Under the pieces are notes generated by a model, which saw only the letters and a program-made list of their open reading frames with translations, was not told the origin of the DNA and made no database searches. Positions 4,346 through 27,512 of a stretch of DNA of 64,000 nt are shown in pieces; the first letter of the stretch is position 1; the number at the start of each line of letters is the position of its first letter. A program made the position numbers and the translations under genes. This stretch comes from Parcubacteria group bacterium. GTDB lineage: Bacteria; Patescibacteriota; Minisyncoccia; Moranbacterales; UBA2206. Where the stretch lies: NCBI GenBank assembly GCA_041659505.1, contig JBAZYF010000002.1, positions 115,966-179,965 on the forward strand, written 5' to 3'.

Positions 4346-5059
4346 TTATTTTCTTATCTTAAAAGTCATAAAATGACTATGCGTTTTATCTATATTTCCA
4401 AACCAAGCTGGGAAAGGAAAATACCCAGCACCTGCAATATCCTCAACCCTGAAATCGTATGCCTCAAGATACTCCTTCAGCCCACGTATATTATAAATTC
4501 TAATATGCCCCCAATAATCTATCAACTTCATTTCAGCATGTAAAGAAAAAGGATTTCCTATGCCAGATTTTTTTTTCGAAAAATTAGTCAAAGAAAATAT
4601 TTGCCACCCCATCAAACTAGAAAAAACATTGCACCAACTGCTTGCATTTTCAGTACTTATTATCGCATACCCTCCTGGCTTTAAAATTCTATAAATTTCC
4701 GAGAGAAAGTTGTCTGAATTTGTTAAATGCTCAATAACTTGATTCGCATGAACTACATCGAAATAATTCGATTGCAAATCAAAGGCTCCGTTTAAGTCAA
4801 ACTTATATACACAAACTCCCCGCTCCTCAGCTAACTTTGCTTTTTTATCAGCTATTTCAACTCCGGATATATCATTAGTTTTAATTTTTTTGGCAATTAT
4901 TAGAGTTATGTTACCATCATCACAACCAAGATCGACAAACCTAGCTTCACTATTTAATTCGGCTAATTTTATTATATTTTTAAAATTAAAGCTTACAGCT
5001 TTTTCAAACATCTTCTCTGCCGTGCTCTTGAAACGCCCAATTATTTCTTGAAATATCAT
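4346..5059 (-). CDS. Class I SAM-dependent methyltransferase
   Basis: Motif I VDLGCDDG and post-I LKPGGYAIIST typical of Methyltransf_11/12 fold. Confidence 0.75.
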   Translation of the reverse strand: MIFQEIIGRFKSTAEKMFEKAVSFNFKNIIKLAELNSEARFVDLGCDDGNITLIIAKKIKTNDISGVEIADKKAKLAEERGVCVYKFDLNGAFDLQSNYFDVVHANQVIEHLTNSDNFLSEIYRILKPGGYAIISTENASSWCNVFSSLMGWQIFSLTNFSKKKSGIGNPFSLHAEMKLIDYWGHIRIYNIRGLKEYLEAYDFRVEDIAGAGYFPFPAWFGNIDKTHSHFMTFKIRK

Positions 5060-5070
5060 ACAATAATTAC

Positions 5071-5745
5071 TTAATTTAATTTTTTAACATTTATCAACTC
5101 AAATGCCACCCGAGGAAAATAATAAACGAAGATTTGACTGAAACTAGCACCAAAAAACCAAAATGGTTTTGGCCAAAATCTTATTGAAGTCATAAGATCA
5201 TCCCCCATTGTGTCACCCTGGACCTCTTGGCGTAAAAATTTCAAACCCGCCAAACCATGACTGTGATATCCGAGTTTTTTCATCTTATCATAATCCCAAC
5301 CAGATAGATGCATCTGTAATGGATTGTTGTCTACGGCCTTTTGCGCAACAAATCCATTCGGTGAAGAAACTATCACTTTTTTCCTTGCCCATTTTTCAGT
5401 TTTTTTCAAAATTTCCATTCCCACCTTTTCGGGTAAGTGCTCCAACACCTCAATCATAATCACTGCATCAAAGCTGTTTTCTGGGAACTCCAAGTCTTCA
5501 ATTTTTTTATCCAAATACTCACTATGAATATTTTTCTTTTTTGATTTCTCCAGATAAGGAGCAAACGCTTCCACGCCAACACTACGCGTTATGTTTTTGC
5601 AATATTGTAGCGGGGAATCCGGTCCGCAACCAAGATCCAAAACTGTTTCACAATCTTCCAACTCCTTCTGTAAATTATAAACCAGGGTATGCAAGACCCT
5701 AGAAATAATTTTATTATGGTATAATTTTTGAATAATTTTTTTCAT
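5071..5745 (-). CDS. Class I SAM-dependent methyltransferase
   Basis: Motif VLDLGCGPDS, acidic residue downstream, IMIEVLEHL motif. Confidence 0.7.
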   Translation of the reverse strand: MKKIIQKLYHNKIISRVLHTLVYNLQKELEDCETVLDLGCGPDSPLQYCKNITRSVGVEAFAPYLEKSKKKNIHSEYLDKKIEDLEFPENSFDAVIMIEVLEHLPEKVGMEILKKTEKWARKKVIVSSPNGFVAQKAVDNNPLQMHLSGWDYDKMKKLGYHSHGLAGLKFLRQEVQGDTMGDDLMTSIRFWPKPFWFFGASFSQIFVYYFPRVAFELINVKKLN

Positions 5746-5753
5746 GCATCTTT

Positions 5754-6782
5754 CTAATTGTTAAACTGGATACTTTTTAGCTGGTCAGCTATTATATTCA
5801 ATTTATACCAATCAACCAACGGAATCAAAATAAACCTTGGAGTAAGCACTGTCCCCAGCACGAAAAACCAAAATTTCAAATCAAGCACATTTTTTCTTCG
5901 CTCTCTTAATAAGATCTTTATTTCTCGCAAAAGTACGCCGGGCTTAGCATAATTTTTCAATTGAACTAGCCCCATAAAATTGGTCAAAATATGCTCCTCT
6001 CCCCACTTTCTTTGCTTTTCATATTCTTTTCCGGCAAACACCGTTCGATACATTTTGAGCCACGATTCGGTCGGAGAAAGATCATAAATCGAAGAAACCG
6101 ATCTGGTTTGACTGTCCATTATTCCAATTGCAACGGTATACTCCTTGAGAAATACACATTTATGTTTTCGCAGAATTCCCGCAAAAGGATAGATATGCGC
6201 CGGAAAACATTCATCATTAAAAGGTACTTCTAGTAATTCTCTGCGATAAGCCAACCCCGAGAGCTGACCAACTGATTCAAAAATTTTCATAAACTCCTTT
6301 TTGCCATCAAAAATCGAAATGACTTTAGTTTTATTTTCATCATATGGCAAAACCGCTCGCACCGGTTTTTTGATGTCTTTTTCAAACCAAAAATAAGGCC
6401 TCGTTACGACACCAATGTTCTCATCCAGGAGAAAGGCGTCATGCGTTTTTCGTAAAGCATCTTTGGCTAGTATATCATCTTGCGCCATCAAAAACAAGAT
6501 GTCGTTTTGTGCCCGCGAAACAATATTTTGCAGATTAACCGCATAGCCAAGATTCTTTTCGTTTTTATAATATTTAATTCTTGAATCATTGAAAGAATCG
6601 ATTACTTTTTTAGTTTTCTCAATCTCCTTTTTCGGCTCCGGCGGATTATCGTCGCCAATAATAATTTCAAAATTATCAAAATTCTCTTGCTCCAAGACAC
6701 TCCGAAGCATAATCCCAATCAAATGAGAGCTTTTATACACAGGGACACAGATGCTAAAACTGAAAGATTTATTATTCGACAT
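5754..6782 (-). CDS. Glycosyltransferase family 2
   Basis: N-terminal ICVPVYK...IIIGDDNPPE and DXD-like QDDD motifs of GT-A fold. Confidence 0.75.
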   Translation of the reverse strand: MSNNKSFSFSICVPVYKSSHLIGIMLRSVLEQENFDNFEIIIGDDNPPEPKKEIEKTKKVIDSFNDSRIKYYKNEKNLGYAVNLQNIVSRAQNDILFLMAQDDILAKDALRKTHDAFLLDENIGVVTRPYFWFEKDIKKPVRAVLPYDENKTKVISIFDGKKEFMKIFESVGQLSGLAYRRELLEVPFNDECFPAHIYPFAGILRKHKCVFLKEYTVAIGIMDSQTRSVSSIYDLSPTESWLKMYRTVFAGKEYEKQRKWGEEHILTNFMGLVQLKNYAKPGVLLREIKILLRERRKNVLDLKFWFFVLGTVLTPRFILIPLVDWYKLNIIADQLKSIQFNN

Positions 6783-7929
6783 TTTCTTGCAATATTCTCA
6801 AATGATTAAGAGCGATCGCATTCCAATCATATTTTTTCACAAAATTGCTAGCCTCAACAGCAATCTCACTTCGTTTATTCTCATTATCAAGCATTTCAAG
6901 AACTTTTAGAGAAAATAGTTCTACGTCATTTTCTTCCAGTTGTAAAGAAAAATTTTCAAAAATTTCCTGATACACTGACAGATTCCAGGAAATCACAGGC
7001 ACACCACAAGCCATCGCTTCTGCCACTGCGATACCGAAACCTTCTTCATGGCTGGGAAATAGAAAAATGCGACTGCGCTTGATGATAGAAAACGATTCAT
7101 CATTCTCCAGAAAACCCAACAGCTCAATATTTTCCCCCAACCCGGCGTCGGCTATTTTCCGTTTCATCTTTTCATTAATCTCGCTACTCCCACCCCCCAT
7201 AATCGCCAACCGCACCTTTGGTTTTTTTTCGACAACTTTTTTCCAGATATCAACCAAATCAAAAATTCCCTTGCTGGGATTCAATCGAGCCAAAAATGTT
7301 GCGTCATATTTTTTCGTATTTTCGCCAATTTTGAGATTTTGAAAATATTCAACATTGATTCCCGGAGTATTAACCGCAAATTTATCCGCGTTAAGTCCAA
7401 AACGCACCAATCCATCTTTAATTTGATAATTTATATTTATTATTTTATCGGCGCGTCTGCAAAGCATAAAGGAAAATTTCTGACAATACTGGGCGAAAAA
7501 ATTTCGCATCTTATTTCCTGGCCGTTTTCTCCAATCAGGATATATATGAAAAATGCATTGAAACCACACCGTCTTTGGATATAGGAGTTTATACAGAAAA
7601 GCAGGAATAACATCCGGAAAAAAATCCGATCCTACATAGAGTATATCAATGTTTTTTTTAAAAACAATACTGCTGGCATAAATCGTCCTCAATACATAGT
7701 TAAATGGTAGCCAGAGCTTATCAAAAAAATGCAAAGACAGGCCAAATTTTATATTTTTGACATCACTCTCGATGGATTTTTTTCCATCAATATTTGTAAT
7801 ACAATAGACCTGAGCGAATTCTTCTCTAACCCGTTTAAATATCTGAATCATCATTTGATCGCCCCCGCTCATCCCTCGGCCATTATTCCAAAACGCATTT
7901 AAAAGAAGAATGATGTTTTTTTTCTTCAT
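6772..7929 (-). CDS. Glycosyltransferase family 1 (GT4-like, GT-B fold)
   Basis: C-terminal EX7E-type motif FLFPSHEEGFGIAVAEAMACGVPVIS. Confidence 0.8.
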   Translation of the reverse strand: MKKKNIILLLNAFWNNGRGMSGGDQMMIQIFKRVREEFAQVYCITNIDGKKSIESDVKNIKFGLSLHFFDKLWLPFNYVLRTIYASSIVFKKNIDILYVGSDFFPDVIPAFLYKLLYPKTVWFQCIFHIYPDWRKRPGNKMRNFFAQYCQKFSFMLCRRADKIININYQIKDGLVRFGLNADKFAVNTPGINVEYFQNLKIGENTKKYDATFLARLNPSKGIFDLVDIWKKVVEKKPKVRLAIMGGGSSEINEKMKRKIADAGLGENIELLGFLENDESFSIIKRSRIFLFPSHEEGFGIAVAEAMACGVPVISWNLSVYQEIFENFSLQLEENDVELFSLKVLEMLDNENKRSEIAVEASNFVKKYDWNAIALNHLRILQENVE

Positions 7930-7933
7930 CTAA

Positions 7934-8911
7934 TTATTTCTTAGTTAATCTTTCCATATCGGCCTCCATCATCATCTTAACCAATTCCTCAAATTTCACT
8001 TGCGGCTTCCAGCCAAGTTTTTTTCTGGCCTTATCCGATTTCCCTTGCAGAGTGAAAAGCTCCGCCGGTCTTTTGAATCTTGGATCTAGCTTGACATATT
8101 TTTTCCAATCCTTAATTCCTACATGCTCAAAGGCAATATCCAAAAAATCACGGATTGAATGGGTTTCTCCGGTAGAAACAATATAGTTGTCCGGTTTTTC
8201 TTGTTGCAGCATTAGCCACATCGCCTCAACATAATCACCAGCAAAACCCCAGTCCCGTTTACTATCCAAATTTCCCAGTCTGATTTCGTTGGCCAGACCT
8301 AGTTTTATTCGTGCGACACCATCCGTTATTTTCCGAGTCACAAACTCAATCCCTCGGATCGGCGATTCGTGATTGAATAAAATTCCATTAGCGCAAAACA
8401 TCCCGTAACTTTCTTTGAAGTTTATCGCCATCCAATAGGCATATAGTTTCGCAATCGCATAAGGACTGCGCGGATGAAAAGGCGTTTCCTCTGTTTGGAT
8501 TCCCTCTTCGTGACTGTTGCCGAACATCTCACTTGTTGACGCTTGATAAAATTTAGCGTTTGGAGCAAAGTTTTTAATTGCGTTTAGGAGATATAGAACA
8601 CCTAATGCGTTTATTTCCGTAGTCAATCTCGCTTGATCCCAAGAAGCACCCACAAAGGATTGAGCGGCTAAATTATACACTTCGTTGGGATTGACGTTTT
8701 TTATAATATTAGTCAAAGAATTTTCATCAGTCATGTCACCGGAAACATATTCAATTTTTTCAGTGATTCCCAAATAATCTAAATTGGAAAAATTTGGATT
8801 AGTATAGCGTCGAATAAGCCCATAGACTTTATACTCTTTTTCCAAGAGTAACTTTGCCAGATATGGTCCGTCTTGGCCGATGATTCCTGTGATTAGTGCT
8901 GTTTTTTTCAT
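7934..8911 (-). CDS. gmd: GDP-mannose 4,6-dehydratase
   Basis: N-terminus KKTALITGIIGQDGPYLAKLLLEKEYKVYGLIRR matches Gmd signature (ITGxTGQDGSYLAElLLeKGYeVhG); SDR YxxxK present. Confidence 0.85.
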   Translation of the reverse strand: MKKTALITGIIGQDGPYLAKLLLEKEYKVYGLIRRYTNPNFSNLDYLGITEKIEYVSGDMTDENSLTNIIKNVNPNEVYNLAAQSFVGASWDQARLTTEINALGVLYLLNAIKNFAPNAKFYQASTSEMFGNSHEEGIQTEETPFHPRSPYAIAKLYAYWMAINFKESYGMFCANGILFNHESPIRGIEFVTRKITDGVARIKLGLANEIRLGNLDSKRDWGFAGDYVEAMWLMLQQEKPDNYIVSTGETHSIRDFLDIAFEHVGIKDWKKYVKLDPRFKRPAELFTLQGKSDKARKKLGWKPQVKFEELVKMMMEADMERLTKK

Positions 8912-8957
8912 ATTATCATGTATTGTCTATTATTATACCACCCTACTAAAAATTCAC

Positions 8958-9857
8958 CTAAGTCTTCCCGCTAAAAAAATACCTCCACCCATCCCAAAAA
9001 CCTCTCCAATAAATTTTCATCAACTCCGGCCGGCCGGATTTTAGCATCAGGAAAGAATAAGCCAAAGGCCAAAACCAGGAGAAAACCAGCATAAACACCA
9101 GTTTATGATACCAGGCGCCATAGCGCAAAATGATAATGATTCGGTTGCGCATCAGATAATACGCCTTGTCATTATTGAACTGCCCGACCAGCGTCCTTGT
9201 TCCGTGCAGATCTTTTTGGGCAATGTTGTGATAGGTTTTCGCCTCAGGGATCATCCCGCACTTGAAACCGAATTTTCTAGCATTGAACGCAAAGTCCGGT
9301 TCCGTATAATCATTTTTCAGTTTTTCATCAAAATAGCCGGCCGTTTCAAAAACGGTTCTGCGCACCAAAAAAACATTCGGCACACCATCGCTGTCAAAAA
9401 CTTTTTGGGGAGGATTATTTTTTCTGCCAAAAGTCATTCCGGTAAAAAAGTTAATTTCCTGAAAATCCAAATAGTTTTCTTTGTTGTGCCACCAATACAT
9501 CGCCGGCCCCACAATGCCATATTCCGGATTATTTTCCGCAAAATCAAAAAGTGTTTGAAACATTTTCACGTCTAAAATATTATCATCATCGACAAACACG
9601 ACATATTTCCCTTGTGTCGCTCGCGCGCCGATATTTCTTGATTTCACCACCAAACAGTTCTGCGGATTGTGGATGATTTGACTGTTTACAACCGACAAAT
9701 CCTCCGCCACTATTTCTTCCGTCCCGTCACTAGAATTGTCATCCACCACAATCAACTCCCAAGCAATACCCGAAAAATCCGCTTTTTTGATGGAAGCGAC
9801 GCATGCCAAAAGTTGCTCCTTTCTATTGTAAGTTGTAATAATAATTGATACATCCAT
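8958..9857 (-). CDS. Glycosyltransferase family 2
   Basis: IIITTYNR...VVDDNSSDGT...FVDDDN motifs; clear paralog of 18205..19143. Confidence 0.75.
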   Translation of the reverse strand: MDVSIIITTYNRKEQLLACVASIKKADFSGIAWELIVVDDNSSDGTEEIVAEDLSVVNSQIIHNPQNCLVVKSRNIGARATQGKYVVFVDDDNILDVKMFQTLFDFAENNPEYGIVGPAMYWWHNKENYLDFQEINFFTGMTFGRKNNPPQKVFDSDGVPNVFLVRRTVFETAGYFDEKLKNDYTEPDFAFNARKFGFKCGMIPEAKTYHNIAQKDLHGTRTLVGQFNNDKAYYLMRNRIIIILRYGAWYHKLVFMLVFSWFWPLAYSFLMLKSGRPELMKIYWRGFWDGWRYFFSGKT

Positions 9858-9868
9858 AATAGCAAATC

Positions 9869-11281
9869 CTAAATTTTAGCCACCTCCCAATGCCCACCTT
9901 TGTCCGGACCGATGCGACGGATAGCCCCGGATTCTTTCAGTTTGGCGATATTTTTCTCCACTGCGCGAGATGAAATTCCCAGTTTTTCAGCCAGTTCATT
10001 TGCGCTTATCTCGTTTTGTTCTCGAATAATATTCAATATTTTCTCCGAACTTTTCTCCGAACTTTTCTCCGAACTTTTCTCCGAACTTTTCTCCACAATT
10101 TTCTGGGTAGTTTTCTCCAAACTTTTTCGCCTTGTTTCTTCAAATTCCTTACTTAAAATCGTAAAGCAAAAACCTCCAGAAGCCTCTTCGATAAAAGGTT
10201 CTGGCAAGCCATAGTCTTTGATTTGCTCGATAGCACGTTTAACTCCGCTTCCATACCGTTCAATCAGCCCGGCATCGCGAAAAATTTCCGCCACTAGCTT
10301 GTTGCGCGGTTTTGATTTTCGTCTTCCGGTTTTTACATCATCCAAAGTTAAATCAAACGGTAGCCAGCCACTATTCCAAAGTTCGAGCTTGTCGAAATAA
10401 ACTCGGAACTGAGAATGGGTTCCTTCTTGATAGTCTCTGTGAATTATCGCATTGATTACTATCTCTCGAATAGCGTCAATAGGATATTGCCATCGTTCTT
10501 CCCGCTGAGGATTGCCCGTAATAATGAATTCTTTCAGAATGTATGTTTTTATGAATTCCATCACTTCATCCACTTCGCTGATCAGATCCTGTCTGATTAT
10601 CCTGTCTTTCTTGATTGTGATATCGTCCTGAAATAGACCTATCTGGATATCGGTTTGCCGGGAAGGGACTTTCGCAAACAATAGCAAGCTGGCATTGGTC
10701 GGATATTCGTTACTATTTTCTTCCACTATTAAGGAATATTTGCGCAAAAAGCTAAAAGCATCACCCAAGTCAATCCCTAAATTTTTTTCGATCATACTCT
10801 TGATTTTCTCAATTTTTTCGGAGTCCAAATCATCCAGACTTTTTTCTTTGTTAGGATAAAAATCCCAACTGGAATTTTTTGTTCGCAAATACATCTCCGA
10901 TATTTCCTGCAAAGTCAAAAGATGATTGCCATTATTCTTTCGCTGATAGAACCTTCCTTTGAAAGACACGGGTTTCAAGGGAAATTCAGCCACCTCAAAG
11001 ACAACGACTATTTTATTGTCAATTACCTGCTTTTCAATCTCAACGCTCAAAAATGGTTGCGTTTTACTTCTAATTTCGCTAGCCCAACGCCCGATACTCT
11101 CCCGATTCAATTCCGTACCCTTGATTTTTTTATCATCAGACACGCCGACAATCACCACCCCGCCTTTACTATTAGCGAAAGCAACCAAACTGATAATCAC
11201 CTCGTCAGAAAAAGACAACTTTAATTCAACATTGGCATTTTCTCCGCCTGCTATTATCTTTTTTATGCTAATTTCATTCAT
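9869..11281 (-). CDS. ATP-binding regulator with AlbA_2 (Schlafen-like) N-domain, HATPase-like core and C-terminal winged-helix HTH
   Basis: Domain order typical of the 'divergent AAA / putative transcriptional regulator' family; C-terminal NEISANELAEKLGISSRAVEKNIAKLKESGAIRRIG is a wHTH; contains low-complexity (KSSE)n linker. Confidence 0.55.
   Translation of the reverse strand: MNEISIKKIIAGGENANVELKLSFSDEVIISLVAFANSKGGVVIVGVSDDKKIKGTELNRESIGRWASEIRSKTQPFLSVEIEKQVIDNKIVVVFEVAEFPLKPVSFKGRFYQRKNNGNHLLTLQEISEMYLRTKNSSWDFYPNKEKSLDDLDSEKIEKIKSMIEKNLGIDLGDAFSFLRKYSLIVEENSNEYPTNASLLLFAKVPSRQTDIQIGLFQDDITIKKDRIIRQDLISEVDEVMEFIKTYILKEFIITGNPQREERWQYPIDAIREIVINAIIHRDYQEGTHSQFRVYFDKLELWNSGWLPFDLTLDDVKTGRRKSKPRNKLVAEIFRDAGLIERYGSGVKRAIEQIKDYGLPEPFIEEASGGFCFTILSKEFEETRRKSLEKTTQKIVEKSSEKSSEKSSEKSSEKILNIIREQNEISANELAEKLGISSRAVEKNIAKLKESGAIRRIGPDKGGHWEVAKI
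10039..10122. repeat. 12-bp tandem repeat TTTTCTCCGAAC x4 perfect + 3 degenerate units, in-frame within 9869..11281 (encodes KSSE repeats)
   Basis: Directly visible in sequence; unit length multiple of 3 so copy-number change keeps frame. Confidence 0.85.
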
Positions 11282-11306
11282 AAGTTACAATATGACTGTC
11301 CCTAAT

Positions 11307-12332
11307 TTATCGCCGATATCCTTCCGGATACCCCGCATACCATTTGCGCAAACTTTCCACGCTTGCGACAAGACTTTTTTTCGGTTTCCACTTCAAGACT
11401 CGCATCGCTTTTTTGGGGTTAGCATAAATTTTGGCATATTCCCCTTTTCTGGCCGCCGCTTTTTTTCTTTCCAGTTTCAGACCGAAAATCTTTTCCACTT
11501 CACTGACAATTTCTTTCACTGAGTAGCCTTTGCCATTGCCCAAATTGAACACATCGCTTTTTCCGCCTTTTTCCAAATACTTCCAAGCGGAAAAATGCGC
11601 TTGAGCCAGATCTTCCACGTCAATATAATCGCGGATCGGCGTGCCATCTGGCGTTTTTACCTTGGCGCAAGTGAAGGCGAACGGTTCGATGCCCAGCGCT
11701 CCGCGCACGGCGTTTTGCATCAAAAGCTGAGACGGTTTTTTGCTGTCGCCGATCACTCCATCGCTCGAAGCTCCGCAAACATTGAAATAGCGTAAAATTA
11801 CAAAACGAAAAGCATGCACCTTGCTGTACCAAGCAAGCATCTTTTCTGTCATTAATTTTGACTCACCATAAGGATTGGTTGGATTTTGCGGATGTTTTTC
11901 ATCCACTGGAAGATAATTTGTCTCGCCATAAGTCGCGCAAGTGGAAGAAAAGATCAGTTTTTTCACTTTTGCTTTGCGCATTGCTTCAAACAAGTTAAAA
12001 CTACCCAGAACATTATTTTCAAAATACAGTTCGGGTTGCTCCATTGATTCGTTAACCAGACAGAGCGCCGCGAAATGGATAACGGCATCAAGCTTATGCT
12101 GTTTAAACACCTTTTCAATGTCAGCCGGCTGGCGCAAATCACCGCGTACAAAATCCAGCTTACCGATTTTTTTGAGAATTTCCAACGGTTCCCGAAATCC
12201 GCGCCCTAAACTATCAAATACCACCACCTCATAGCCTTGTTCCAAAAAAAATTTCACGGCATGACTACCGATATACCCCGCCCCGCCAGTAATTAATATT
12301 TTTGTCATATTATTAATTTTAGCACATCCCAT
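11307..12332 (-). CDS. galE: UDP-glucose 4-epimerase
   Basis: MTKILITGGAGYIGSHAV... N-terminal Rossmann GxxGxxG, extended SDR; overall GalE-like length and motifs. Confidence 0.8.
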   Translation of the reverse strand: MGCAKINNMTKILITGGAGYIGSHAVKFFLEQGYEVVVFDSLGRGFREPLEILKKIGKLDFVRGDLRQPADIEKVFKQHKLDAVIHFAALCLVNESMEQPELYFENNVLGSFNLFEAMRKAKVKKLIFSSTCATYGETNYLPVDEKHPQNPTNPYGESKLMTEKMLAWYSKVHAFRFVILRYFNVCGASSDGVIGDSKKPSQLLMQNAVRGALGIEPFAFTCAKVKTPDGTPIRDYIDVEDLAQAHFSAWKYLEKGGKSDVFNLGNGKGYSVKEIVSEVEKIFGLKLERKKAAARKGEYAKIYANPKKAMRVLKWKPKKSLVASVESLRKWYAGYPEGYRR

Positions 12333-12336
12333 CCAA

Positions 12337-14386: not shown

Positions 14387-14459
14387 ATATTTTCTCTCTT
14401 ACTATTTTAACATAACATATCGCAACGTGCCAAAAATTTCAAAATTAGCGTTTCGATTA

Positions 14460-16356: not shown

Positions 16357-16359
16357 AAT

Positions 16360-18204
16360 TTAGCCTAAAAAATACTTCTTATGCCAATAATTAAAATTAA
16401 ACACTCGCAAAAGCTTAAAGCGATGATCGGCTTTGCCGTTCATATGTTCGGTGTGCATCAATTTCACATATTCCAGATCAAAAAATCCGTTATCGTGAAA
16501 TAAATACTCCTGAAATAAATCTTTCAATTCGTTTCGAATCCACTTGTCCAATGGTACACCAAAACCGCTTTTTTTCCTATAGATCAGGTCTTTGTCGAAA
16601 TATTTGCTCGCCAATTTCTTTAAAACATACTTTTGCTCGCCGTTTCTGATTTTCCAATTTCCCGAAAGCGAAAAAGCAAATTCCGCCAAATCCTTATCCA
16701 AAAGTGGATTGCGCATCTCAAGCGCTGTCGCCATTGTCGCCCGATCTCCTTTCACAAGATACCAATCAGGCAATTGAATTTTGCAATCAAGAAATAAGCT
16801 TTTATTGATTGCGTCTTTTTGTCCAAAAGTATTTTCATATTTTCGCGCTTCTGCAAAAATTGACTTCAAGCTTATCGGTTTTTTCAATAATTTTTCCGCT
16901 TCTTCCGGCAGAAAACTGCCACTGCCAAAAATAAACTGCCTTTGGGAAAAATCTAACCCAAAACTGTCAAGTAATTTGTGATAAGGATTATTTTTAGGGG
17001 TTATTTTTTTTCCGATACTCGCCAAAAAACTCAAATAGCGATTATTTTCAATAAACTCTTGCGCTTTGTATTTTGAATACCCCCCAAAAAGCTCATCTCC
17101 GCCGTCGCCACTTAAAACTACTGTGATTTTATCTTTGGCAAATTTGGAAACAAAATAGAGTGGAATAATTGCCGCGTCTGCCATTGGCTCGTCCAAATAA
17201 TCCAAAATTTCCAAAAAATTTTCCCGCACGAGCTGGTCTTCAAAGTAGCAAAGATTATAGTTTATGCCAAGTTTTGACGCCACCCGCTGAGCATACTCCG
17301 ATTCGTCCGCTTCCTTGGAATTTTTGTAGCACACCGTGAAAGAATTCACTTGCGGAGAAAAATCGGAAAGATATTTCGTGATTAGACTGCTATCCACTCC
17401 CCCGCTTAGAAAAACGCCAAGTGGCACATCTGACATTAGTCTTTTTTCGACTGATTTTTTGATCAAATCCTCTGTTTTGGCCAGTACCTCGTTTTCTGAA
17501 TAATTATTATTTATTTTAATTTCTTCCAGCTTCCAAAAATCGTACTTATTAATTATTTTCCATTTTTTCAGATCAAACTGAAAAGTAGTTGCCGGTTCCA
17601 GTTTTTTTATTTTATCTAAAATACTATTAGGCGAAGGAATGTAACCATAAAACAGATATTTTGCCAAAGACAACTCGTCGATCTTTAATTTTTGTTTAAT
17701 TTCGGGATTTTTAATGATGGCCTTTAGCTCAGATGCGAAGCAAAAAATTTCTTCGTCTAAATAGTAATACAACGGTTTTTTGCCGAAATGATCGCGCGCT
17801 AGTGTCAAGAGATTATTTTTCCGATCATAAATAGCAAACGCAAACATCCCCTCAATTTTTTCCACAATTTTTTGCCCAAATTCCTCATAGCCATGAATCA
17901 AAATTTCCGTGTCCGATTTGCTTTTCCATTGGTAACTTGTTCCTAATTCTTTTTTGATAGTTTGGTAATTATAGATTTCGCCATTGAAAATTATAGCGAC
18001 ACTTCCATCTTCATTAAACATCGGTTGTCTTCCTGCCTGCGAAAGATCGATGATGGAAAGCCGTCTTTGCCCTAAGGCAAGATTATTAATAAAAAAATCA
18101 CCCGATTGGTCGGGGCCTCTTTTTTTGAGCGTTTCAAGCATTTCCAAAAACAACTCTCGATTTACCGGAGTGCTTCTATTTAGTTGTCCTAAAATTCCAC
18201 ACAT
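16360..18204 (-). CDS. asnB: Asparagine synthase (glutamine-hydrolysing) family amidotransferase
   Basis: N-terminal MCGILG (Ntn Cys nucleophile), SGGxDSS PP-loop (FLSGGVDSS); 614 aa. Confidence 0.85.
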   Translation of the reverse strand: MCGILGQLNRSTPVNRELFLEMLETLKKRGPDQSGDFFINNLALGQRRLSIIDLSQAGRQPMFNEDGSVAIIFNGEIYNYQTIKKELGTSYQWKSKSDTEILIHGYEEFGQKIVEKIEGMFAFAIYDRKNNLLTLARDHFGKKPLYYYLDEEIFCFASELKAIIKNPEIKQKLKIDELSLAKYLFYGYIPSPNSILDKIKKLEPATTFQFDLKKWKIINKYDFWKLEEIKINNNYSENEVLAKTEDLIKKSVEKRLMSDVPLGVFLSGGVDSSLITKYLSDFSPQVNSFTVCYKNSKEADESEYAQRVASKLGINYNLCYFEDQLVRENFLEILDYLDEPMADAAIIPLYFVSKFAKDKITVVLSGDGGDELFGGYSKYKAQEFIENNRYLSFLASIGKKITPKNNPYHKLLDSFGLDFSQRQFIFGSGSFLPEEAEKLLKKPISLKSIFAEARKYENTFGQKDAINKSLFLDCKIQLPDWYLVKGDRATMATALEMRNPLLDKDLAEFAFSLSGNWKIRNGEQKYVLKKLASKYFDKDLIYRKKSGFGVPLDKWIRNELKDLFQEYLFHDNGFFDLEYVKLMHTEHMNGKADHRFKLLRVFNFNYWHKKYFLG

Positions 18205-19143
18205 CTATTTTTTTAATGAATTCACCAGCCTTCCGGTAAAAAAATACCTTATTCCATCAAAAAAACCGTCCCAGTATAACCCCACCAAATCAAATCGTTT
18301 TTCTCTTAGCATAAACAACGAATAAATCAATGGCCAAACCCAAGAAAAAAATAACAAATAACCGGTTTTTTGAAACAAATTGCCATGTCTAACAATAATC
18401 ACAGTTCTGTTTCTCATGAGACAATACGCTTTTTGCTTGAACTTGCCTCCTAGGGCGCGCGCGGTTTTATTATCTGCCAGAGTAACATTGTGATATATTT
18501 TTGCTTTTTTTAACATTCCGCATTTATAGCCATATCTTCCCGCCCTAAAAGCAAAATCTGACTCGGCAAAGGTTTGAATCAACTCTTCGTCAAAAAGACC
18601 ACAATTCTCAAAGACCTCTCTCTTGATAAGAAAAGCATTTGGAACGCCATCACTCTCACAAACGGCATGATTTGTTTCGTCAATCATACCGGATGTTTTT
18701 CCGGTAAATAGATTAATTTTTTGAAAATCCAAATATTTCTGTTTTGTCTTAAGATAATACATCGTCGGACCCACTATTCCATATACACTATTCGTTAAAG
18801 CAAAATCAAAAAGCACCCGAATCATCTCACGATCCAAAATATTGTCATCATCAATGAACAAGATAAATCTGCCGGATGATTTCTCATACCCCATATTTCT
18901 CGCTCTCGCTGTCATTTGCTGAACACTATTGTGGATAATTTTTCCATTGGCAACTTCCAGATCCGCAAGTTCGAATTTCTCAGTGCCATCATTTGAATTA
19001 TCATCAACTACGATGATTTCCCATGTCCCAATATCATGCTGGGAAGCATTGATCGATTTAATACAGCTCAATAATTCGCTTTTCCTATTTCTAGTTGTTA
19101 TAATGATAGATAAATCCATCTTGTTTATGATTGGCTTAATCAA
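18205..19143 (-). CDS. Glycosyltransferase family 2 (paralog of 8958..9857)
   Basis: IIITTRNRKSELLSCI...VVDDNSNDGT...FIDDDN; collinear similarity to 8958..9857 over full length. Confidence 0.75.
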   Translation of the reverse strand: MIKPIINKMDLSIIITTRNRKSELLSCIKSINASQHDIGTWEIIVVDDNSNDGTEKFELADLEVANGKIIHNSVQQMTARARNMGYEKSSGRFILFIDDDNILDREMIRVLFDFALTNSVYGIVGPTMYYLKTKQKYLDFQKINLFTGKTSGMIDETNHAVCESDGVPNAFLIKREVFENCGLFDEELIQTFAESDFAFRAGRYGYKCGMLKKAKIYHNVTLADNKTARALGGKFKQKAYCLMRNRTVIIVRHGNLFQKTGYLLFFSWVWPLIYSLFMLREKRFDLVGLYWDGFFDGIRYFFTGRLVNSLKK

Positions 19144-19627
19144 ATCTGTTTCTTATAAAGCGTGCCGGCACTCCTGCGACAATTGAGTATGGCTCAACAT
19201 TTTTCGTCACAACTGCGTTAGCACCCACAATCGCACCCGTTCCGATGGTCACGCCAGGCGACACAACCACATTCACGCCTAGCCACACATCATCCTCAAT
19301 TACAACCGACCCTCTCTTTTCTCCTTGAAACATCATAGGAACTTCTTTTTTTTCAAATTTGTGATGGGAAGTTAAGATGCTACAATTCGAAGCAATCATC
19401 ACATTGTTGCCAATTTTCAGCCCCCCCTGACCGGATATCGTGGAATTACGATTAATTGTAACACAATTTCCCAGCTCAATTCCCGCCGGACTCATCAGAT
19501 AGCAACCCTTTGCGATAAAAACTCTTTTCCCGATTTTCTTGCAAAAGAGACCCCAAAAAGCCGCACGCATTCTGGCGACTGAAAATACCGTTTCATTAAA
19601 AATTTTTTGCAAAATAGCAACCAGCAT
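19136..19627 (-). CDS. Hexapeptide-repeat (LbH) acyl/acetyltransferase
   Basis: Repeated [LIV]G.... hexapeptide pattern (IGNNVMIASNCSI..., VWLGVNVVVSPGVTIGTGAIVGANAVV). Confidence 0.7.
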   Translation of the reverse strand: MLVAILQKIFNETVFSVARMRAAFWGLFCKKIGKRVFIAKGCYLMSPAGIELGNCVTINRNSTISGQGGLKIGNNVMIASNCSILTSHHKFEKKEVPMMFQGEKRGSVVIEDDVWLGVNVVVSPGVTIGTGAIVGANAVVTKNVEPYSIVAGVPARFIRNRFD

Positions 19628-19658
19628 TATCTGTTTTTTATTCCGATTTAATCCATAT

Positions 19659-20705
19659 TTATTGCTTCCAATTCTCCCGACTCATCTCCGCCTGATTGAA
19701 TATTCCCACAAATTTGCCCCAAGCATAAACGATGAGTGTCACCCAGCAAGCCGGAAGGTGAAAAAACCAAGCCCTGTCTTTTTTTCTTGAGTAACCAATC
19801 AGCGCTTGCCCAAACAAGGGAAAAATCAAAACCGTATAGAGCAAAAATCGCAAAAGTCCCAGCGATGATTCTCCGCCAATTTCAAATTTGCTCCAATCAA
19901 ACACGCGTGACTTGTTTTTTTTGTGAAAGGTGTAATCCTTAATCCGTCTTTTTTGCTTCCTGATGAATTTGCCAAAATCCGCTTCGCAAAAAGTGTGGAT
20001 GATGCCAACTTTGACTTTGGCAATTTGAATCGCACCGCACTCGGCGATTTCCTTGGCAATCACGTCGATGTCAAACAGATATTTCCCGGTGTTGATTTTT
20101 TGCAAAAAAGCGGTGCGAAAAATTGTGCCGTTCGCGCCGACAGTCGGGATACCAGCCTTGGTTAATTTAATTTTGAGATAATCACCGCAATCAATTTCCT
20201 CGTGTGGCACCGCCGTCCATTTTTGGGTCAGATAGTTCCAACGATCATAATTGCCTAAAAATAGGCAGACGGGGTCGTTCATTCCAATTAGCGCGCAGTA
20301 ACGTTCAATGTAACCGCCTTCACGACGCCAAGTATAGCTGATCGGTTCAGATAGCATAATTTCTTGGTCCGCGAAAGGTGCCACCATTTTTTTCAGCCAC
20401 CCGGTGTCAGGCAAAAAATTATCCGAATCCAACGTCAGTGCCAGTTCATTTTTCGCCTCGCGCAAGGCCACCGCTTTCCCAGACTCGGCAGTTTTCAAAG
20501 GATTAGGAAAAACTTTTCCGCCATACTTTTTAACAATCTCCACTGTTGCGTCAGTCGATCCGCCATCGCCAACCAAAAACTCGAGCCTATCTTTGGGATA
20601 GTCCTGCTCAAATAGGCGACGCAAACATTCATCCAGCGTCAACTGCGCGTTGAGCGTCGCCATATAGACACTAATTGTCGGCAAATTATTTTCCATATCT
20701 AGCAA
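19659..20705 (-). CDS. Glycosyltransferase family 2 with C-terminal membrane segments
   Basis: ISVYMATLN...VGDGGSTD...LDSDN GT-A motifs; hydrophobic C-terminus. Confidence 0.7.
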   Translation of the reverse strand: MLDMENNLPTISVYMATLNAQLTLDECLRRLFEQDYPKDRLEFLVGDGGSTDATVEIVKKYGGKVFPNPLKTAESGKAVALREAKNELALTLDSDNFLPDTGWLKKMVAPFADQEIMLSEPISYTWRREGGYIERYCALIGMNDPVCLFLGNYDRWNYLTQKWTAVPHEEIDCGDYLKIKLTKAGIPTVGANGTIFRTAFLQKINTGKYLFDIDVIAKEIAECGAIQIAKVKVGIIHTFCEADFGKFIRKQKRRIKDYTFHKKNKSRVFDWSKFEIGGESSLGLLRFLLYTVLIFPLFGQALIGYSRKKDRAWFFHLPACWVTLIVYAWGKFVGIFNQAEMSRENWKQ

Positions 20706-22174
20706 TTTTCTTTTTTCGTTTTGGAAAAATCAATCATCTTTCCCAGCCATTTCCAGCCGGCTACAAAGAGAAATTTCAAATCACCCCAATTGCGAATGGA
20801 TATTAATTTCCGCCAGATAAATTGCGGGCTGGCAAATGACTTATACAGCCCCTGCACCAGATCTTTTGCTTCAAGGGAGCTGATCTGCGCTTTCATCACC
20901 ATTTCCCGCTGGTCATAGTGGGCATAGTCTAGCGTGCGCAATAAATCATTTTCGGCGCAATATTTGTGGAGCGGCGTGCCTGGGTAGGGAATGACGATCG
21001 TGCCCTGCAAGGTGTCGACATAACCTTCTTTGAATAATTTTTTGGCGAGTGCAATTGTGCGCTCGGCCATCTCTTTCGTTTCCCAAGGATAACCGATCAT
21101 GGCTGTGATATGCGGTTCTAGTCCGGCCTCTTTGCACAGCCTGAGTCCCGGCTCAATTTCTTCCACTTTGAGATTTTTGTCGATCCGATCCAGCGTTTCT
21201 TGATTGGCCGATTCCAGTCCGAAAAGAATGAAGCGAAAGCCGGCTTTTTTCATCATAGCCCAAATTTTTGGATCGCGAATTCCTGTGATGCGCATATTGC
21301 AACTCATCGTAATTTTTTTATTGTACCCTCGCTCAATCATCCCGTTGCAAAAATCTTCCAGCCATTGCCCGATGGGAAGCGAACCGGAATCTTCCATAAT
21401 TTCCCGCACACCCAGTTTGATCAAATTTTCCACTTCAGCCAGCGCTTTTTGCGCTGACATCGTGCGAAAACTCTTGCCCGGAAAAAGCGTCGTCCAAGAA
21501 CAGAAAGTACAGCGCCCCCACCAACAATCCCGCCCGCTCATGAGGTATGCGCCAGGAGTATACTTGAAATTGCCATTTTTGTAGGCATACAGTTTCCATT
21601 TCGTCAGCTCACGATCGATGAGTGGCAAATCATTGAGGTTGTGCTTGGATAGATCGGCTGGTCCGGAATTAACAATTTTTTGCGCGCCGTCGCGAAACCA
21701 AAATCCCCCTTCTAATATCTCGCCATTTTTTAAATGATTCGCCAGATTCAAAAGCATAAAATCATAATCCCCGCTCACCAGCACAAAATCAACCAGCGAC
21801 TCGCGCAGAGACTCTTCCGGAAAAGCCGTCACATGATCGCCCATCAGGACTATTTTCGCCTTAGGCAATTTGGTTTTGAGCTTGGCAATGATCTCCCAAT
21901 GCATTTTCACCACTGGTGTTTTTGTCTCAAGGGCAATCAGATCCGGCGCCTCAGCAACTATTCTTTTTTCCCAAGCTTCATAATCCAAACCTTCCGCAAT
22001 GCCCTCGTCCCAAAAAACGTCATAGCCGTTCTTTTTGAGAAGAGACGCCGCATAAGCGGGAATGACGGGATAGATAAAGGTTGGGGTGCTAAACCACTGA
22101 AACTGACGATTTTGACCAAGACAAGCAACGCCCTTTCCTGATTTCAAGGGCGGATAAGAAATAGCGATTTTCAT
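20699..22174 (-). CDS. B12-binding radical SAM protein (class B radical SAM, probable methyltransferase-type)
   Basis: N-terminal cobalamin-binding Rossmann-like domain; CxxxCxxC cluster motif CWWGRCTFC. Confidence 0.8.
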   Translation of the reverse strand: MKIAISYPPLKSGKGVACLGQNRQFQWFSTPTFIYPVIPAYAASLLKKNGYDVFWDEGIAEGLDYEAWEKRIVAEAPDLIALETKTPVVKMHWEIIAKLKTKLPKAKIVLMGDHVTAFPEESLRESLVDFVLVSGDYDFMLLNLANHLKNGEILEGGFWFRDGAQKIVNSGPADLSKHNLNDLPLIDRELTKWKLYAYKNGNFKYTPGAYLMSGRDCWWGRCTFCSWTTLFPGKSFRTMSAQKALAEVENLIKLGVREIMEDSGSLPIGQWLEDFCNGMIERGYNKKITMSCNMRITGIRDPKIWAMMKKAGFRFILFGLESANQETLDRIDKNLKVEEIEPGLRLCKEAGLEPHITAMIGYPWETKEMAERTIALAKKLFKEGYVDTLQGTIVIPYPGTPLHKYCAENDLLRTLDYAHYDQREMVMKAQISSLEAKDLVQGLYKSFASPQFIWRKLISIRNWGDLKFLFVAGWKWLGKMIDFSKTKKENC

Positions 22175-22366
22175 GAGGTCTCTACGAAATACGAGTCCGT
22201 ACCTACCTGCCGGTGGCTCACCGCCAAAAACTATGGCCGACGGAGCGCAGACAGGCGAATATACGAATCCGCTTTGATCAAGTTATAAATTAAAAAAACG
22301 ACTTCTAGGTTTCATTTTCTATAATAAACCAAAATGCTATTTTCTCCAAGGCTCTAAAAACACTTA
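22175..22366 (-). promoter_or_regulatory. GC-rich structured 5' leader / candidate cis-regulatory RNA upstream of the B12-radical SAM gene
   Basis: 192-nt intergenic gap inside otherwise tightly packed operon; locally GC-rich with several short stems (e.g. GGCGGTGAGCCACCGGC); identity not established. Confidence 0.3.
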
Positions 22367-23380
22367 CTAACGCATCTTGCTTTTAAGCTCTCGCGTGAAA
22401 AGAAAACCTTGCAAAAATCTTGCTCCGTAGACTAGATGTGTAAGAAAAACATACATCAGAGCATAGAGCGCTATCGGTAAATTTTTTTGACGACGCGTGA
22501 TATCAAAAAGGACAATGAGCATCGCCAGGCTATACATGATCCAGCCCAAAAGATAGAGAATTTCAAAAAAAACAAAAAAATGGCCAAGAATCAGTCCGAT
22601 AAAAACAAACAGAAAAAAAGCACTGGGGATGAAATAGCGGAATTTGAAGGAAGTTTTGGGATATTTTTTGGCAAAAAATCCGCGATGAATCCCATATCCT
22701 CCTATCTGTTTCAAGTGTCGCAAGAGCCCCTCGCGCCGATGATGCCAAACGATCACCGCTGGATCATAAAGAATCTTGTTATTTTCCTTGAGTTTATCAA
22801 TCACATCCAGACAAAATTTTGTGTCTTCCCCTGGCCAAAAATTACAATCAAAACCGCCTGCCTTGAGAAAGGCGCTCTTACGCACGGTCAGATTGACAGT
22901 CGGCCAGTCAGAAACTAGATGTTTTTCTCCCACTGGAACATAGCGCTCAGGAAAGCCGCCAGAAAGTTGACTGAGAAAGACCGCTCCGGAAACTTTTTGC
23001 AAAAAACTGTCCGATCCGGGAGTGATCGCCGGACCGCCGACAGCAGCGATACTTTCATCGGAAAAATCTTGATCTAAGATATTCAAAATGTCTTTACGCG
23101 GATAAGCATCATCGTCGATAAAAACTAAAAATTCACCCTGCGCATCGCGCACGGCCAAATTTCTTTTCACGGCCGGACCGCGACCACTGCCAATCTGCCT
23201 GGTTTTTGGCCAAGCTTCTGCCGTTTCCAGACCTTCGTCCGGATAAATAATAATTTCGTAGTCATCTCGCGAAATCTCCAGAATCTTCGGCACTGATTCG
23301 CGAATATAGTCGTTGACAACTTTAACCGGAATGATGAAACTGTATTTTATCAAATTAGCCATTTTTTGAGGTTTACGCAC
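22367..23380 (-). CDS. Glycosyltransferase family 2 with C-terminal TM helices
   Basis: FIIPVK...IDDDAYP DXD region; hydrophobic C-terminal third. Confidence 0.7.
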   Translation of the reverse strand: MRKPQKMANLIKYSFIIPVKVVNDYIRESVPKILEISRDDYEIIIYPDEGLETAEAWPKTRQIGSGRGPAVKRNLAVRDAQGEFLVFIDDDAYPRKDILNILDQDFSDESIAAVGGPAITPGSDSFLQKVSGAVFLSQLSGGFPERYVPVGEKHLVSDWPTVNLTVRKSAFLKAGGFDCNFWPGEDTKFCLDVIDKLKENNKILYDPAVIVWHHRREGLLRHLKQIGGYGIHRGFFAKKYPKTSFKFRYFIPSAFFLFVFIGLILGHFFVFFEILYLLGWIMYSLAMLIVLFDITRRQKNLPIALYALMYVFLTHLVYGARFLQGFLFTRELKSKMR

Positions 23381-27487: not shown

Positions 27488-27512
27488 AAAAAATTTTAAA
27501 TATTTATAATTT

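Follow-up and report, generated by a model that had tools for sequence, protein, structure and literature searches.

A conserved pairing of a membrane glycosyltransferase with a B12-domain radical SAM protein in a mosaic glycan island of a Parcubacteria group bacterium

Introduction

Among cobalamin-type radical S-adenosylmethionine (SAM) enzymes, non-methylating members are rare and little understood. OxsB, HpnJ, BchE, PbsB and the ladderane enzyme are the only ones named in recent papers, and the known ones all catalyse ring formation or rearrangement (bioRxiv 10.64898/2026.04.29.721654). For HpnJ and calditol synthase (Cds), genetic evidence alone has led to the proposal that they turn a lipid-linked hexose into a cyclitol by ring contraction (PMC13459092); neither HpnJ nor the analogous calditol synthase has ever been reconstituted. 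Here we describe a protein with a B12-binding and a radical SAM domain (termed rSAM; gene at 20699-22174) that is encoded by a 64,000-nucleotide stretch of DNA from a Parcubacteria group bacterium (contig JBAZYF010000002.1, positions 115,966 to 179,965; the whole stretch is called the window). Its gene lies in a run of glycan genes (4346-23380), next to the gene of a membrane-anchored family-2 glycosyltransferase (GT2f).

A first-pass annotation of this run had described it as a decoration-rich glycan operon and had read rSAM as an enzyme of C- or unusual methylation. Most of the locus, i.e. its glycosyltransferases (GTs), methyltransferases, Gmd, GalE, AsnB-type amidotransferase and left-handed beta-helix (LbH) acyltransferase, is an ordinary, if large, mosaic glycan island. 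What is new here is a conserved GT2-rSAM module of a generically named family inside it.

Results

The radical SAM gene is the core of a widespread module

Relatives of rSAM were searched with peptide patterns derived from the protein, which were run on GTDB contigs representing one genome per species and matched at least 600 places; 583 of 600 pattern matches encode an rSAM relative. All neighbourhood counts given in the following rest on the best 80 of these 583 loci (54-88% identical), with 76 used for gene-order counts. The hosts of the best 80 loci comprise Patescibacteria, Desulfovibrionales, Elusimicrobia, Nitrospirota, Dehalococcoidia, Brocadiaceae, Spirochaetota and a few archaeal metagenome-assembled genomes (MAGs), with Fundidesulfovibrio agrisoli SG106 and Desulfovibrio sp. 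DV as cultured carriers, and the nearest loci are from Moranbacteria/Parcubacteria MAGs. At E<=1e-10, 6869 database proteins match rSAM, under names that are generic or over-annotated as BchE/YgiQ. The genes of the module and of the cassette that commonly surrounds it are located in the window as follows.

20699-22174, minus strand: rSAM, B12-binding and Radical_SAM protein (PF02310, 35.3 bits against a cut-off of 32.1; PF04055, 57.9 bits)
22367-23380, minus strand: GT2f, membrane-anchored family-2 glycosyltransferase (Pfam Glycos_transf_2)
26546-27487, minus strand: UXS-like UDP-glucuronate decarboxylase, a short-chain dehydrogenase/reductase (SDR; NCBIfam)
30157-30654, minus strand: m165, small membrane protein of 165 amino acids (aa), divergent member of the YdjM family (PF04307 matches among orthologues)
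30710-32452, plus strand: 580-aa protein with at least seven transmembrane helices and C-terminal tetratricopeptide repeats (TPRs; Pfam matches to TPR)
32482-33417, minus strand: PgfS/ArnC/GtrB-like polyprenyl-phosphate GT2 with a DADLQHP motif and two C-terminal transmembrane helices (NCBIfam PgfS 221 bits, ArnC 150 bits)
33422-34687, minus strand: Wzx-like (Polysacc_synt) flippase (Pfam)

GT2f accompanies rSAM in 69 of the 80 loci (tblastn, approximately 51% identity), including 29 of the 34 loci with flanks of 5 kb or more on each side. Its gene comes immediately before that of rSAM (position -1) in 47 of 76 loci by gene order and in 56 loci by open reading frame (ORF). The two proteins also show correlated divergence across the loci (Mantel test on their divergence matrices, r 0.65; 0 of 999 permutations reach this value). 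GT2f and rSAM probably form one functional unit, which would have been inherited and transferred jointly across many anaerobic lineages.

In other genomes, the genes mostly stand in the order Wzx, a PgfS-like or Dpm1-like polyprenyl-phosphate GT2, GT2f and rSAM, followed by m165 or the opposite-strand 580-aa TPR protein and by further GT2s. Wzx is found at -2/-3 of rSAM in 36 loci and a PgfS-like or Dpm1-like GT2 at -2/-3 in 34; orthologues of the window's own PgfS-like GT2 (55% identity) were detected in 24 loci, mostly just upstream of GT2f. Orthologues of m165 occur in 17-22 loci at a median offset of +1632, with position +1 after rSAM in 13 loci, and homologues of the 580-aa protein (47% identity) in 13 loci, on the opposite strand and divergent beside rSAM. 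In 18-25 loci, the module has a UXS orthologue (44-94% identity) next to it. The cassette of Wzx, PgfS-like GT2, GT2f, rSAM, 165-aa protein and UXS is contiguous in the Parcubacteria loci L003 and L004; the window holds the same genes, split by approximately 9 kb (23440-32452) and rearranged in order.

Among the other genes of the run, GT2a and the methyltransferase MT2 form a sub-module (5071-6782) found together downstream of rSAM in 11-14 loci (47-57% identity), and orthologues of GT2e lie downstream of rSAM in 16-21. AsnB occurs with rSAM in one other of the 80 loci (L038), 2.5 kb downstream of it both there and in the window, and AsnB, MT1, MT3, GT4c and GT2c are essentially private to the window's lineage. 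This conserved neighbourhood indicates that the decoration-rich operon of the first-pass annotation is a variable shell around a conserved GT2-rSAM core. The radical SAM gene is thus the core of a widespread module and not a local decoration gene.

Many of the related glycan loci contain one or two extra B12-domain radical SAM paralogues, which are 21-27% identical and carry a canonical CX3CX2C motif (L038, at 14534-15958 and 20015-21455; L009, L036, L042, L043, L065, L071, L073, L076 and L078). Glycan loci of anaerobes seem to recruit this protein class repeatedly. A 27-kb plasmid of Lawsonia intracellularis (L082) carries a glycan-like cluster with two radical SAM genes, one of B12 type and 34% identical to HpnJ, together with six class-I methyltransferases, GT2s and heptose-pathway genes (SIS, GHMP kinase, HAD).

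Relation of rSAM to described enzyme families

By its sequence, rSAM shows two features of class B radical SAM enzymes, an N-terminal Rossmann-type B12-binding domain (PF02310) and a radical SAM core with a three-cysteine [4Fe-4S] motif. The protein was scored against 18,950 NCBIfam models, and every score was far below the family cut-off. The ranking was headed by HpnJ (159 bits) and BchE (118 bits), followed by ApyD (73), HpnR (68), PhpK (67.5), the ladderane enzyme (66), MgmA (58), KedN5 (40) and AprD4 (39). For BchE (TIGR02026) the cut-off is 481 bits, for the AprD4 diol-dehydratase model (NF033070) 500 bits, and none of the methylase models reached its cut-off either (score/cut-off: HpnR 68/650, PhpK 67.5/600, MgmA 57.8/360, KedN5 40/700, C-methyltransferase of ribosomally synthesized and post-translationally modified peptides 52.8/282). 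rSAM is a member of none of the curated HpnJ, BchE, methylase and AprD4 families. The identity as BchE, which is the JGI name on homologues, is an over-annotation ruled out by the score and by a context of glycan rather than photosynthesis genes.

This ranking by hidden Markov model (HMM) scores, together with a comparison with PDB entries, was used in place of a phylogeny with GenK, Fom3, TsrM and MoeK5. At the sequence level, rSAM aligns to HpnJ of Mycetohabitans over 440 aa (29% identity, E 5e-35). The Mycetohabitans genes hpnI (a GT2), hpnJ and hpnK have the same GT2-then-rSAM order as GT2f and rSAM; hopanoid genes were not found among the scanned ORFs of the window. The only solved structures detectable by sequence were those of MgmA (E 1e-9 and 4.6e-9) and AprD4, and TsrM, TokK, CysS and OxsB were not detected by sequence even with a profile of the rSAM family (E<=1). 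For the AlphaFold2 (AF2) model of rSAM (mean predicted local distance difference test, pLDDT, 83.6), the closest fold was AprD4 (E 5.6e-20, template modelling (TM) scores 0.73/0.79), followed by OxsB, MgmA, TsrM, CysS and TokK, all five of which the model matches over full length.

Across 81 family sequences, 113 of the 491 positions of rSAM are at least 97% conserved, and the iron-sulfur cluster motif CWWG[RK]C[TS]FC (CX4CX2C) is present in all 81. HpnJ, BchE, ten paralogous B12-domain radical SAM proteins from the same loci and three plasmid-borne ones have CX3CX2C instead. OxsB, a ring-contracting non-methylase, has CX4CX2C and not CX3CX2C, as the single class B enzyme of known structure to do so; TsrM and TokK do not have CX4CX2C (PMC9204698).

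Some members of the family contain an intein inside this motif, exactly at the third cluster cysteine (CWWGKCTF|C...intein...N|CSW). The carriers are P0242 (972 aa), whose intein has a LAGLIDADG-like endonuclease block, and P0248 (665 aa); the copy in the window is free of an intein.

Based on the HMM ranking, the alignment with HpnJ, the gene order, the fold matches and the motif shared with OxsB, we lean towards a non-methylase. In the manner of HpnJ, OxsB and AprD4, rSAM would then alter a sugar skeleton by radical chemistry without methyl transfer, whether by contracting the ring, by rearranging it or by dehydrating it. We give this slightly less than an even chance, marginally ahead of C-methylation. 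The assignment of rSAM to C- or unusual methylation is not favoured, with HpnJ (159 bits) and BchE (118 bits) scoring above the methylases, AprD4 and OxsB as closest folds, and CX4CX2C as motif. As grounds against its own reading, the first-pass annotation had named a grouping of rSAM with non-methylating enzymes and an rRNA or protein type of the methyltransferases of the run; the former is what the scores for HpnJ and BchE point to, the latter was not found.

Partner proteins of the module

The AF2 model of GT2f (pLDDT 92.9) consists of a GT-A domain and three long C-terminal helices. Its best PDB matches were GT2 synthases integrated in the membrane, the Chlorella virus hyaluronan synthase (7sp8; E 1.7e-10, TM-score approximately 0.6) and BcsA, and its best NCBIfam match was MftF (84 bits, under cut-off); the start called by NCBI, at approximately 23362, gives a protein of 331 aa. 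The invariant residues DDD83-85, GED178-180 and HHRR207-210 occupy what we take to be the places of the synthase motifs DxD, (T/G)ED and Q/RxxRW. GT2f has too few helices for a channel, and its most likely role is the transfer of a sugar to an acceptor bound in the membrane, on the cytoplasmic side.

The residues H12, D45, D47, H48, D51, H82, E85, H116 and D120 are invariant in m165. Ten of 23 m165 orthologues match PF04307 (YdjM family; best E 3.4e-8), and YdjM is regarded as a membrane metal-dependent hydrolase. In the 580-aa protein, N..N.FVSDD after the first transmembrane helix and AVHP..TE before the TPRs are invariant; these motifs presumably resemble those of TMTC-type GT-C transferases, which we treat as a lead only, and the protein is a candidate GT-C-type transferase. 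PDB sequence searches with the transmembrane part of the 580-aa protein and with the 165-aa protein returned only TPR matches or noise, and lenient Pfam searches with these two and with an 883-aa protein described below gave only weak YdjM matches. The product of the gene at 32482-33417 aligned over full length to the PgfS and ArnC models (221 bits against 500 and 150 against 529, respectively), i.e. under the equivalog cut-offs.

The gene run around the module

Eighteen minus-strand ORFs, each coding for 163-614 aa, fill the run at 4346-23380. The intergenic gaps measure -23 to +192 bp, and only three exceed 40 bp (46, 99 and 192 bp). The run thus lies on one strand and is near-gapless, as first annotated. 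In addition to rSAM and GT2f, it contains the following genes.

4346-5059, minus strand: MT1, class-I SAM methyltransferase (Pfam)
5071-5745, minus strand: MT2, class-I SAM methyltransferase (Pfam)
5754-6782, minus strand: GT2a glycosyltransferase (Pfam)
6772-7929, minus strand: GT4a glycosyltransferase (Pfam)
7934-8911, minus strand: Gmd, GDP-mannose 4,6-dehydratase (Pfam GDP_Man_Dehyd 418 bits; TIGR01472 412.3 bits against a cut-off of 415, marginal)
8958-9857, minus strand: GT2b glycosyltransferase (Pfam)
9869-11281, minus strand: AlbA_2/HATPase_c_4/winged helix-turn-helix protein containing a low-complexity (EKSS)n repeat, putative regulator (Pfam)
11307-12332, minus strand: GalE, UDP-glucose 4-epimerase (TIGR01179, 369 bits against a cut-off of 262)
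12337-13182, minus strand: GT2c glycosyltransferase (Pfam)
13179-14360, minus strand: GT4b glycosyltransferase (Pfam)
14460-15209, minus strand: MT3, class-I SAM methyltransferase (Pfam Methyltransf_23/11)
15187-16356, minus strand: GT4c glycosyltransferase (Pfam Glycos_transf_1)
16360-18204, minus strand: AsnB-type glutamine amidotransferase (Pfam Asn_synthase and GATase_7; TIGR01536, 461 bits against a cut-off of 267)
18205-19143, minus strand: GT2d glycosyltransferase (Pfam)
19136-19627, minus strand: hexapeptide-repeat (LbH) acyl/acetyltransferase, WcaF-like (Pfam Hexapep; NCBIfam WcaF family 92.5 bits, below the cut-off of 192)
19659-20705, minus strand: GT2e, membrane-anchored GT2 (Pfam); its start overlaps the rSAM stop by 7 bp

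Domain HMMs of Pfam and NCBIfam yielded six GT2 and three GT4 proteins, in agreement with the at least nine glycosyltransferases originally counted, and confirmed Gmd, GalE, the three methyltransferases, the B12-domain radical SAM protein, the AsnB-type protein and the LbH acetyltransferase. A glycan-assembly locus with candidates for methyl-, acetyl- and amido-transfer is thereby supported. The first inventory, of approximately 19 genes, is right as to the content of the run and not as to the number, which is 18 and includes one gene that had been missed, the AlbA_2-type gene at 9869-11281, which encodes no sugar enzyme. This gene sits amid the sugar genes and has a 78%-identical orthologue in the same context in L001. 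For the supply of GDP-6-deoxyhexose ascribed to Gmd, a reductase or aminotransferase completing the sugar was not found within the run.

The best matches of MT1, MT2 and MT3 are generic (UbiG, MetW and Methyltransf_23 type), every one under cut-off, and no affinity of the three to rRNA or protein methyltransferase families was seen in Pfam and NCBIfam. AsnB scored 474 bits with TIGR03108 (XrtA/PEP-CTERM amidotransferase), below its cut-off of 817; the uronamide-forming role first suggested for it is plausible as a candidate function. GT2b and GT2d are paralogues (51% identical, E 6e-117), indicating an internal duplication within the locus. A scan for promoters and terminators revealed no clear internal terminator and gave consensus-level candidates only, with -35/-10 candidates at 23428-23400 (upstream of GT2f) and 14433-14404. 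The GC content is patchy, with 0.44-0.47 near rSAM, 0.37 near AsnB and 0.32-0.34 at the downstream end, which is typical of mosaic glycan loci.

The wider glycan island and its borders

Since same-strand glycan genes extend beyond both ends of the run, its borders are arbitrary. The same strand continues downstream to an 883-aa protein and upstream via further glycan genes to approximately 50 kb. With high confidence, the 19-kb run belongs to a larger island of cell-envelope glycan genes, approximately 48 kb long, and makes up its downstream part; the host is a Parcubacteria/Moranbacteria-type bacterium of the candidate phyla radiation (CPR). The island is, with equally little doubt, a mosaic that has a conserved core and, around it, a changing set of GT2/GT4 genes and of genes for methyl-, acetyl- and amido-transferases. 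The run is not a self-contained operon: Wzx, the polyprenyl-phosphate GT2, UXS and a candidate outward transferase all lie outside 4346-23380. Further features of the island and the window are listed below.

1-1517: protein without family match
1672-4323, minus strand: 883-aa polytopic membrane protein (at least ten transmembrane helices, large extracytoplasmic domain), following MT1 downstream after a gap of 22 bp; without family match
23440-26191, minus strand: beta-helix and LCAT/PGAP1-like hydrolase gene, split by a frameshift near 25317-25337 (Pfam)
40282-41799: protein without family match
43417-45222: protein without family match
48548-50032: protein without family match

The 883-aa protein is a candidate outward transferase or polymerase, with a putative assignment to GT-C; it had no match in Pfam (including lenient searches), NCBIfam or PDB sequences, and homologues of it are encoded near rSAM in five to six loci. 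The beta-helix ORF (25292-26191) and the LCAT/PGAP1-like ORF (23440-25458) are the halves of one gene: a single 870-aa homologue in L003 aligns to 23440-26191 in frame -1 and then in frame -2. The split at 25317-25337 reflects either a pseudogene or a sequencing error. Two secreted beta-helix proteins are also encoded upstream of the run. Beyond Wzx, two more SDRs, further GT4s and family-less polytopic proteins follow up to approximately 50 kb. Altogether, five proteins had no Pfam, NCBIfam or PDB sequence match: three polytopic ones (at least 505, 883 and 601 aa) plus a further two, of approximately 500 aa, without predicted transmembrane helices. An AAA_14/DUF4143 ATPase gene, a type often linked with mobile or defence regions, lies within the island (41956-43227, minus strand).

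The island is bordered by a dcw-type cell-wall cluster at 55413-63989 (MraW, PBP transpeptidase, Mur ligase, Glycos_transf_4), in which the MraY/WecA-family Glycos_transf_4 gene beside the dcw genes (55413-56438) is the window's only candidate for an initiating transferase. Family scans recognised no Wzy or chain-length regulator in the island, and no tRNA or Rfam-recognised RNA gene was found in the window.

Discussion

The conserved gene order allows a pathway to be proposed for the module. Gmd, GalE, UXS and the other SDRs, whose genes are all present, would provide nucleotide sugars, from which the PgfS-like GT2 and/or another initiating transferase may build a polyprenyl-phosphate-linked intermediate at the cytoplasmic face. 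GT2f would then add a sugar to this polyprenyl-(di)phosphate-linked acceptor, possibly glucuronic acid (GlcA) or xylose where Ugd or UXS adjoin. The fold and the CX4CX2C motif suggest that rSAM could use a [4Fe-4S] cluster to cleave SAM and that the resulting 5'-deoxyadenosyl radical would take a hydrogen from the sugar, which may as a consequence be rearranged or dehydrated, or be methylated via methylcobalamin. A possible role of the YdjM-like protein is the hydrolytic removal of a group that protects or activates the sugar unit. Judging by their families, the variable GT2s and GT4s, the three candidate O-methyltransferases, the LbH acyltransferase and AsnB could elaborate the unit, before Wzx flips it and a polytopic protein (the 580-aa, the 883-aa or another one) transfers or polymerises it outside. 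We regard it as an even bet that GT2f and rSAM together alter a lipid-linked sugar, bound to the membrane, prior to its export. The more specific proposal that the pair installs a sugar on a lipid carrier and then rebuilds its carbon skeleton, by contraction to a carbocyclic cyclitol or by another C-C rearrangement, is less likely than not.

Several observations weigh against the pathway and the chemistry favoured here. With 159 bits against a cut-off of 577.6 (TIGR03471), rSAM is not an HpnJ; it is 27-29% identical to HpnJ and hardly less so, at 21-27%, to other B12-domain radical SAM proteins. A large majority of the characterised class B enzymes are methylases; MoeK5, GenK and GenD1 demonstrate that sugar C-methylation by such enzymes is real. 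AprD4, the best fold match, has a B12-like domain and is reported to bind no cobalamin. HpnJ itself co-localises with the C-methylases Fom3 and MoeK5 at stringent thresholds of a similarity network (PMC9204698). As regards the pairing, the closest relative of the locus (L001, 88% identity) has no GT2f within 10 kb upstream of rSAM, and GT2f was ruled out as a homologue of HpnI (BLASTP E 0.72, hhalign probability 1.8%). UXS or Ugd occurs with the pair in only approximately 10 of the 34 complete loci, which makes the donor sugar a guess, and an initiating phosphoglycosyltransferase was not found inside the island. Our literature search retrieved no paper on the rSAM family, nor on any B12-domain radical SAM protein in CPR glycan loci.

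Given that all scores lie far below the cut-offs and that HpnJ clusters with Fom3 and MoeK5, methylation stays a live rival, and we regard C-methylation as a substantial possibility, albeit below even; a chemistry of some other kind is improbable. In its full form, this rival makes rSAM a cobalamin-dependent C-methyltransferase that acts on an unactivated sugar carbon of a lipid-linked glycan, on the model of MoeK5 at the uronamide unit of moenomycin and of GenK/GenD1 on aminoglycosides, with AsnB amidating a uronic acid in the same polymer, which we consider a serious if tentative candidate. It draws on the predominance of methylation among characterised class B enzymes and on the network position of HpnJ, the nearest named family, and further on the methylase MgmA as the closest solved structure by sequence (E 1e-9 and 4.6e-9), on Ugd and UXS (the UDP-GlcA branch) as frequent neighbours, and on the AsnB gene 2.5 kb downstream of rSAM in the window and L038; in moenomycin biosynthesis, the radical SAM enzyme MoeK5 is paired with the AsnB-like MoeF5 on a lipid-linked uronic acid. 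However, AsnB occurs with rSAM in only one of the 80 related loci, the methylase HMMs gave 40-68 bits as compared with 159 for HpnJ and 118 for BchE, and the top folds, AprD4 and OxsB, are non-methylases. The failure to detect TsrM, TokK, CysS and OxsB by sequence even with the family profile, and a CX4CX2C motif common to OxsB and not to TsrM/TokK, likewise count against C-methylation.

Two further explanations retain a non-methylating rSAM and differ in its substrate or reaction. The pair could act on the head group of a membrane lipid, GT2f glycosylating a lipid alcohol and rSAM contracting the hexose to an ether-linked cyclitol, on the lines proposed for HpnI/HpnJ (bacteriohopanetetrol cyclitol ether) and for Cds (calditol). 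HpnJ and Cds are both described in reviews as ring-contracting on lipid-linked sugars (PMC13459092). The GT2-then-rSAM order of hpnI-hpnJ, HpnJ as best HMM match, a small GT2f at the membrane interface with too few helices for a channel, and a YdjM-like putative hydrolase in the place that HpnK takes after HpnJ are all consistent with such a role. It is nevertheless improbable, as most loci combine Wzx, polyprenyl-phosphate GT2s, many GTs and ABC or Wzx exporters, as would be expected of a glycan destined for export, the sequences of GT2f and HpnI are unrelated, and no squalene-hopene cyclase or lipid-synthesis gene was found among the scanned ORFs of the window; CPR bacteria are also not known to synthesise hopanoids. 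Alternatively, rSAM could be an AprD4-like cobalamin-independent dehydratase that takes a hydroxyl off a sugar and works with a neighbouring SDR reductase, as AprD4 does with AprD3, so that the glycan would contain a deoxy sugar. In favour of this, AprD4 gave the best fold match and was, besides MgmA, the only PDB entry matched by sequence. The Pfam score for B12 binding just exceeds its cut-off (35.3 against 32.1), approximately 20 loci have SDR genes no more than 3 kb downstream of rSAM, and CPR bacteria are not known to synthesise cobalamin. But the NCBIfam model of AprD4 gave 39 bits where its cut-off is 500, SDRs occur commonly in glycan loci of any kind with no single SDR family consistently adjacent, and the TM-score lead of AprD4 may merely reflect similar protein length, so that we hold this explanation for very improbable.

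The family is a good target with hundreds of species, thousands of sequences, unusual conservation, a fixed GT partner and at least two cultured Desulfovibrionaceae. These features make the action of a B12-domain radical SAM protein on a cell-surface glycan sugar directly testable, and the fixed partner GT2f should supply the substrate of rSAM. If skeleton rebuilding were true, the surface glycans of CPR bacteria and many anaerobes would contain a previously unrecognised acid-stable or C-branched residue, and CX4CX2C would define a new functional class of B12-domain radical SAM proteins. The module would offer a first handle on the envelope glycan chemistry of CPR/Patescibacteria, whose surfaces mediate an episymbiotic lifestyle.

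The locus shares features with several described systems. As in HpnI/HpnJ/HpnK, which lead from bacteriohopanetetrol glucosamine to the cyclitol ether, a membrane GT2 stands directly upstream of a B12-domain radical SAM protein and a hydrolase gene comes next. However, the gene after rSAM here is that of a YdjM-like membrane protein whereas HpnK is of YdjC type, GT2f is not HpnI-like, the motif is CX4CX2C and not the CX3CX2C of HpnJ, and the surroundings are Wzx, a polyprenyl-phosphate GT2 and many GTs rather than a hopanoid context. OxsB (oxetanocin ring contraction) and AprD4 (paromamine 1,2-diol dehydratase), the top structural matches, act on sugar rings without methyl transfer; the likeness is at the level of the fold only, at 14-16% identity, and OxsB is a protein of 730 aa with extra domains. 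MoeK5/MoeF5 of moenomycin and GenK/GenD1/Fms7 of the aminoglycosides are, as compared by their descriptions, class B radical SAM systems acting on sugars (lipid-linked in the case of moenomycin), and an AsnB-like gene is present in the moenomycin pathway as in the window. In contrast to the locus described here, they belong to secondary-metabolite pathways of actinomycetes, and the window's AsnB lies outside the conserved module.

Regarding the pathways around the module, Wzx/Wzy O-antigen and capsule loci likewise have co-directional GT2/GT4 arrays, the nucleotide-sugar genes Gmd, GalE and UXS, transferases for O-methyl and acetyl groups, a Wzx, and a mosaic make-up with patches of low GC; the island differs from them by its CPR host and by having no recognisable Wzy, chain-length regulator or initiating phosphoglycosyltransferase. 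Three-component glycosylation of the Gtr/Pgf/Arn type also combines a PgfS/ArnC-like GT2 with a flippase and polytopic candidate transferases, and UXS resembles the ArnA decarboxylase step, whereas the flippase here is of Wzx type rather than GtrA or ArnE/F, and Gtr/Pgf/Arn systems have neither a radical SAM protein nor a second membrane GT2. By analogy, the arrangement may resemble an HpnI/HpnJ pair moved into a Wzx-type or three-component glycan pathway, or else the MoeK5/MoeF5 steps of moenomycin biosynthesis.

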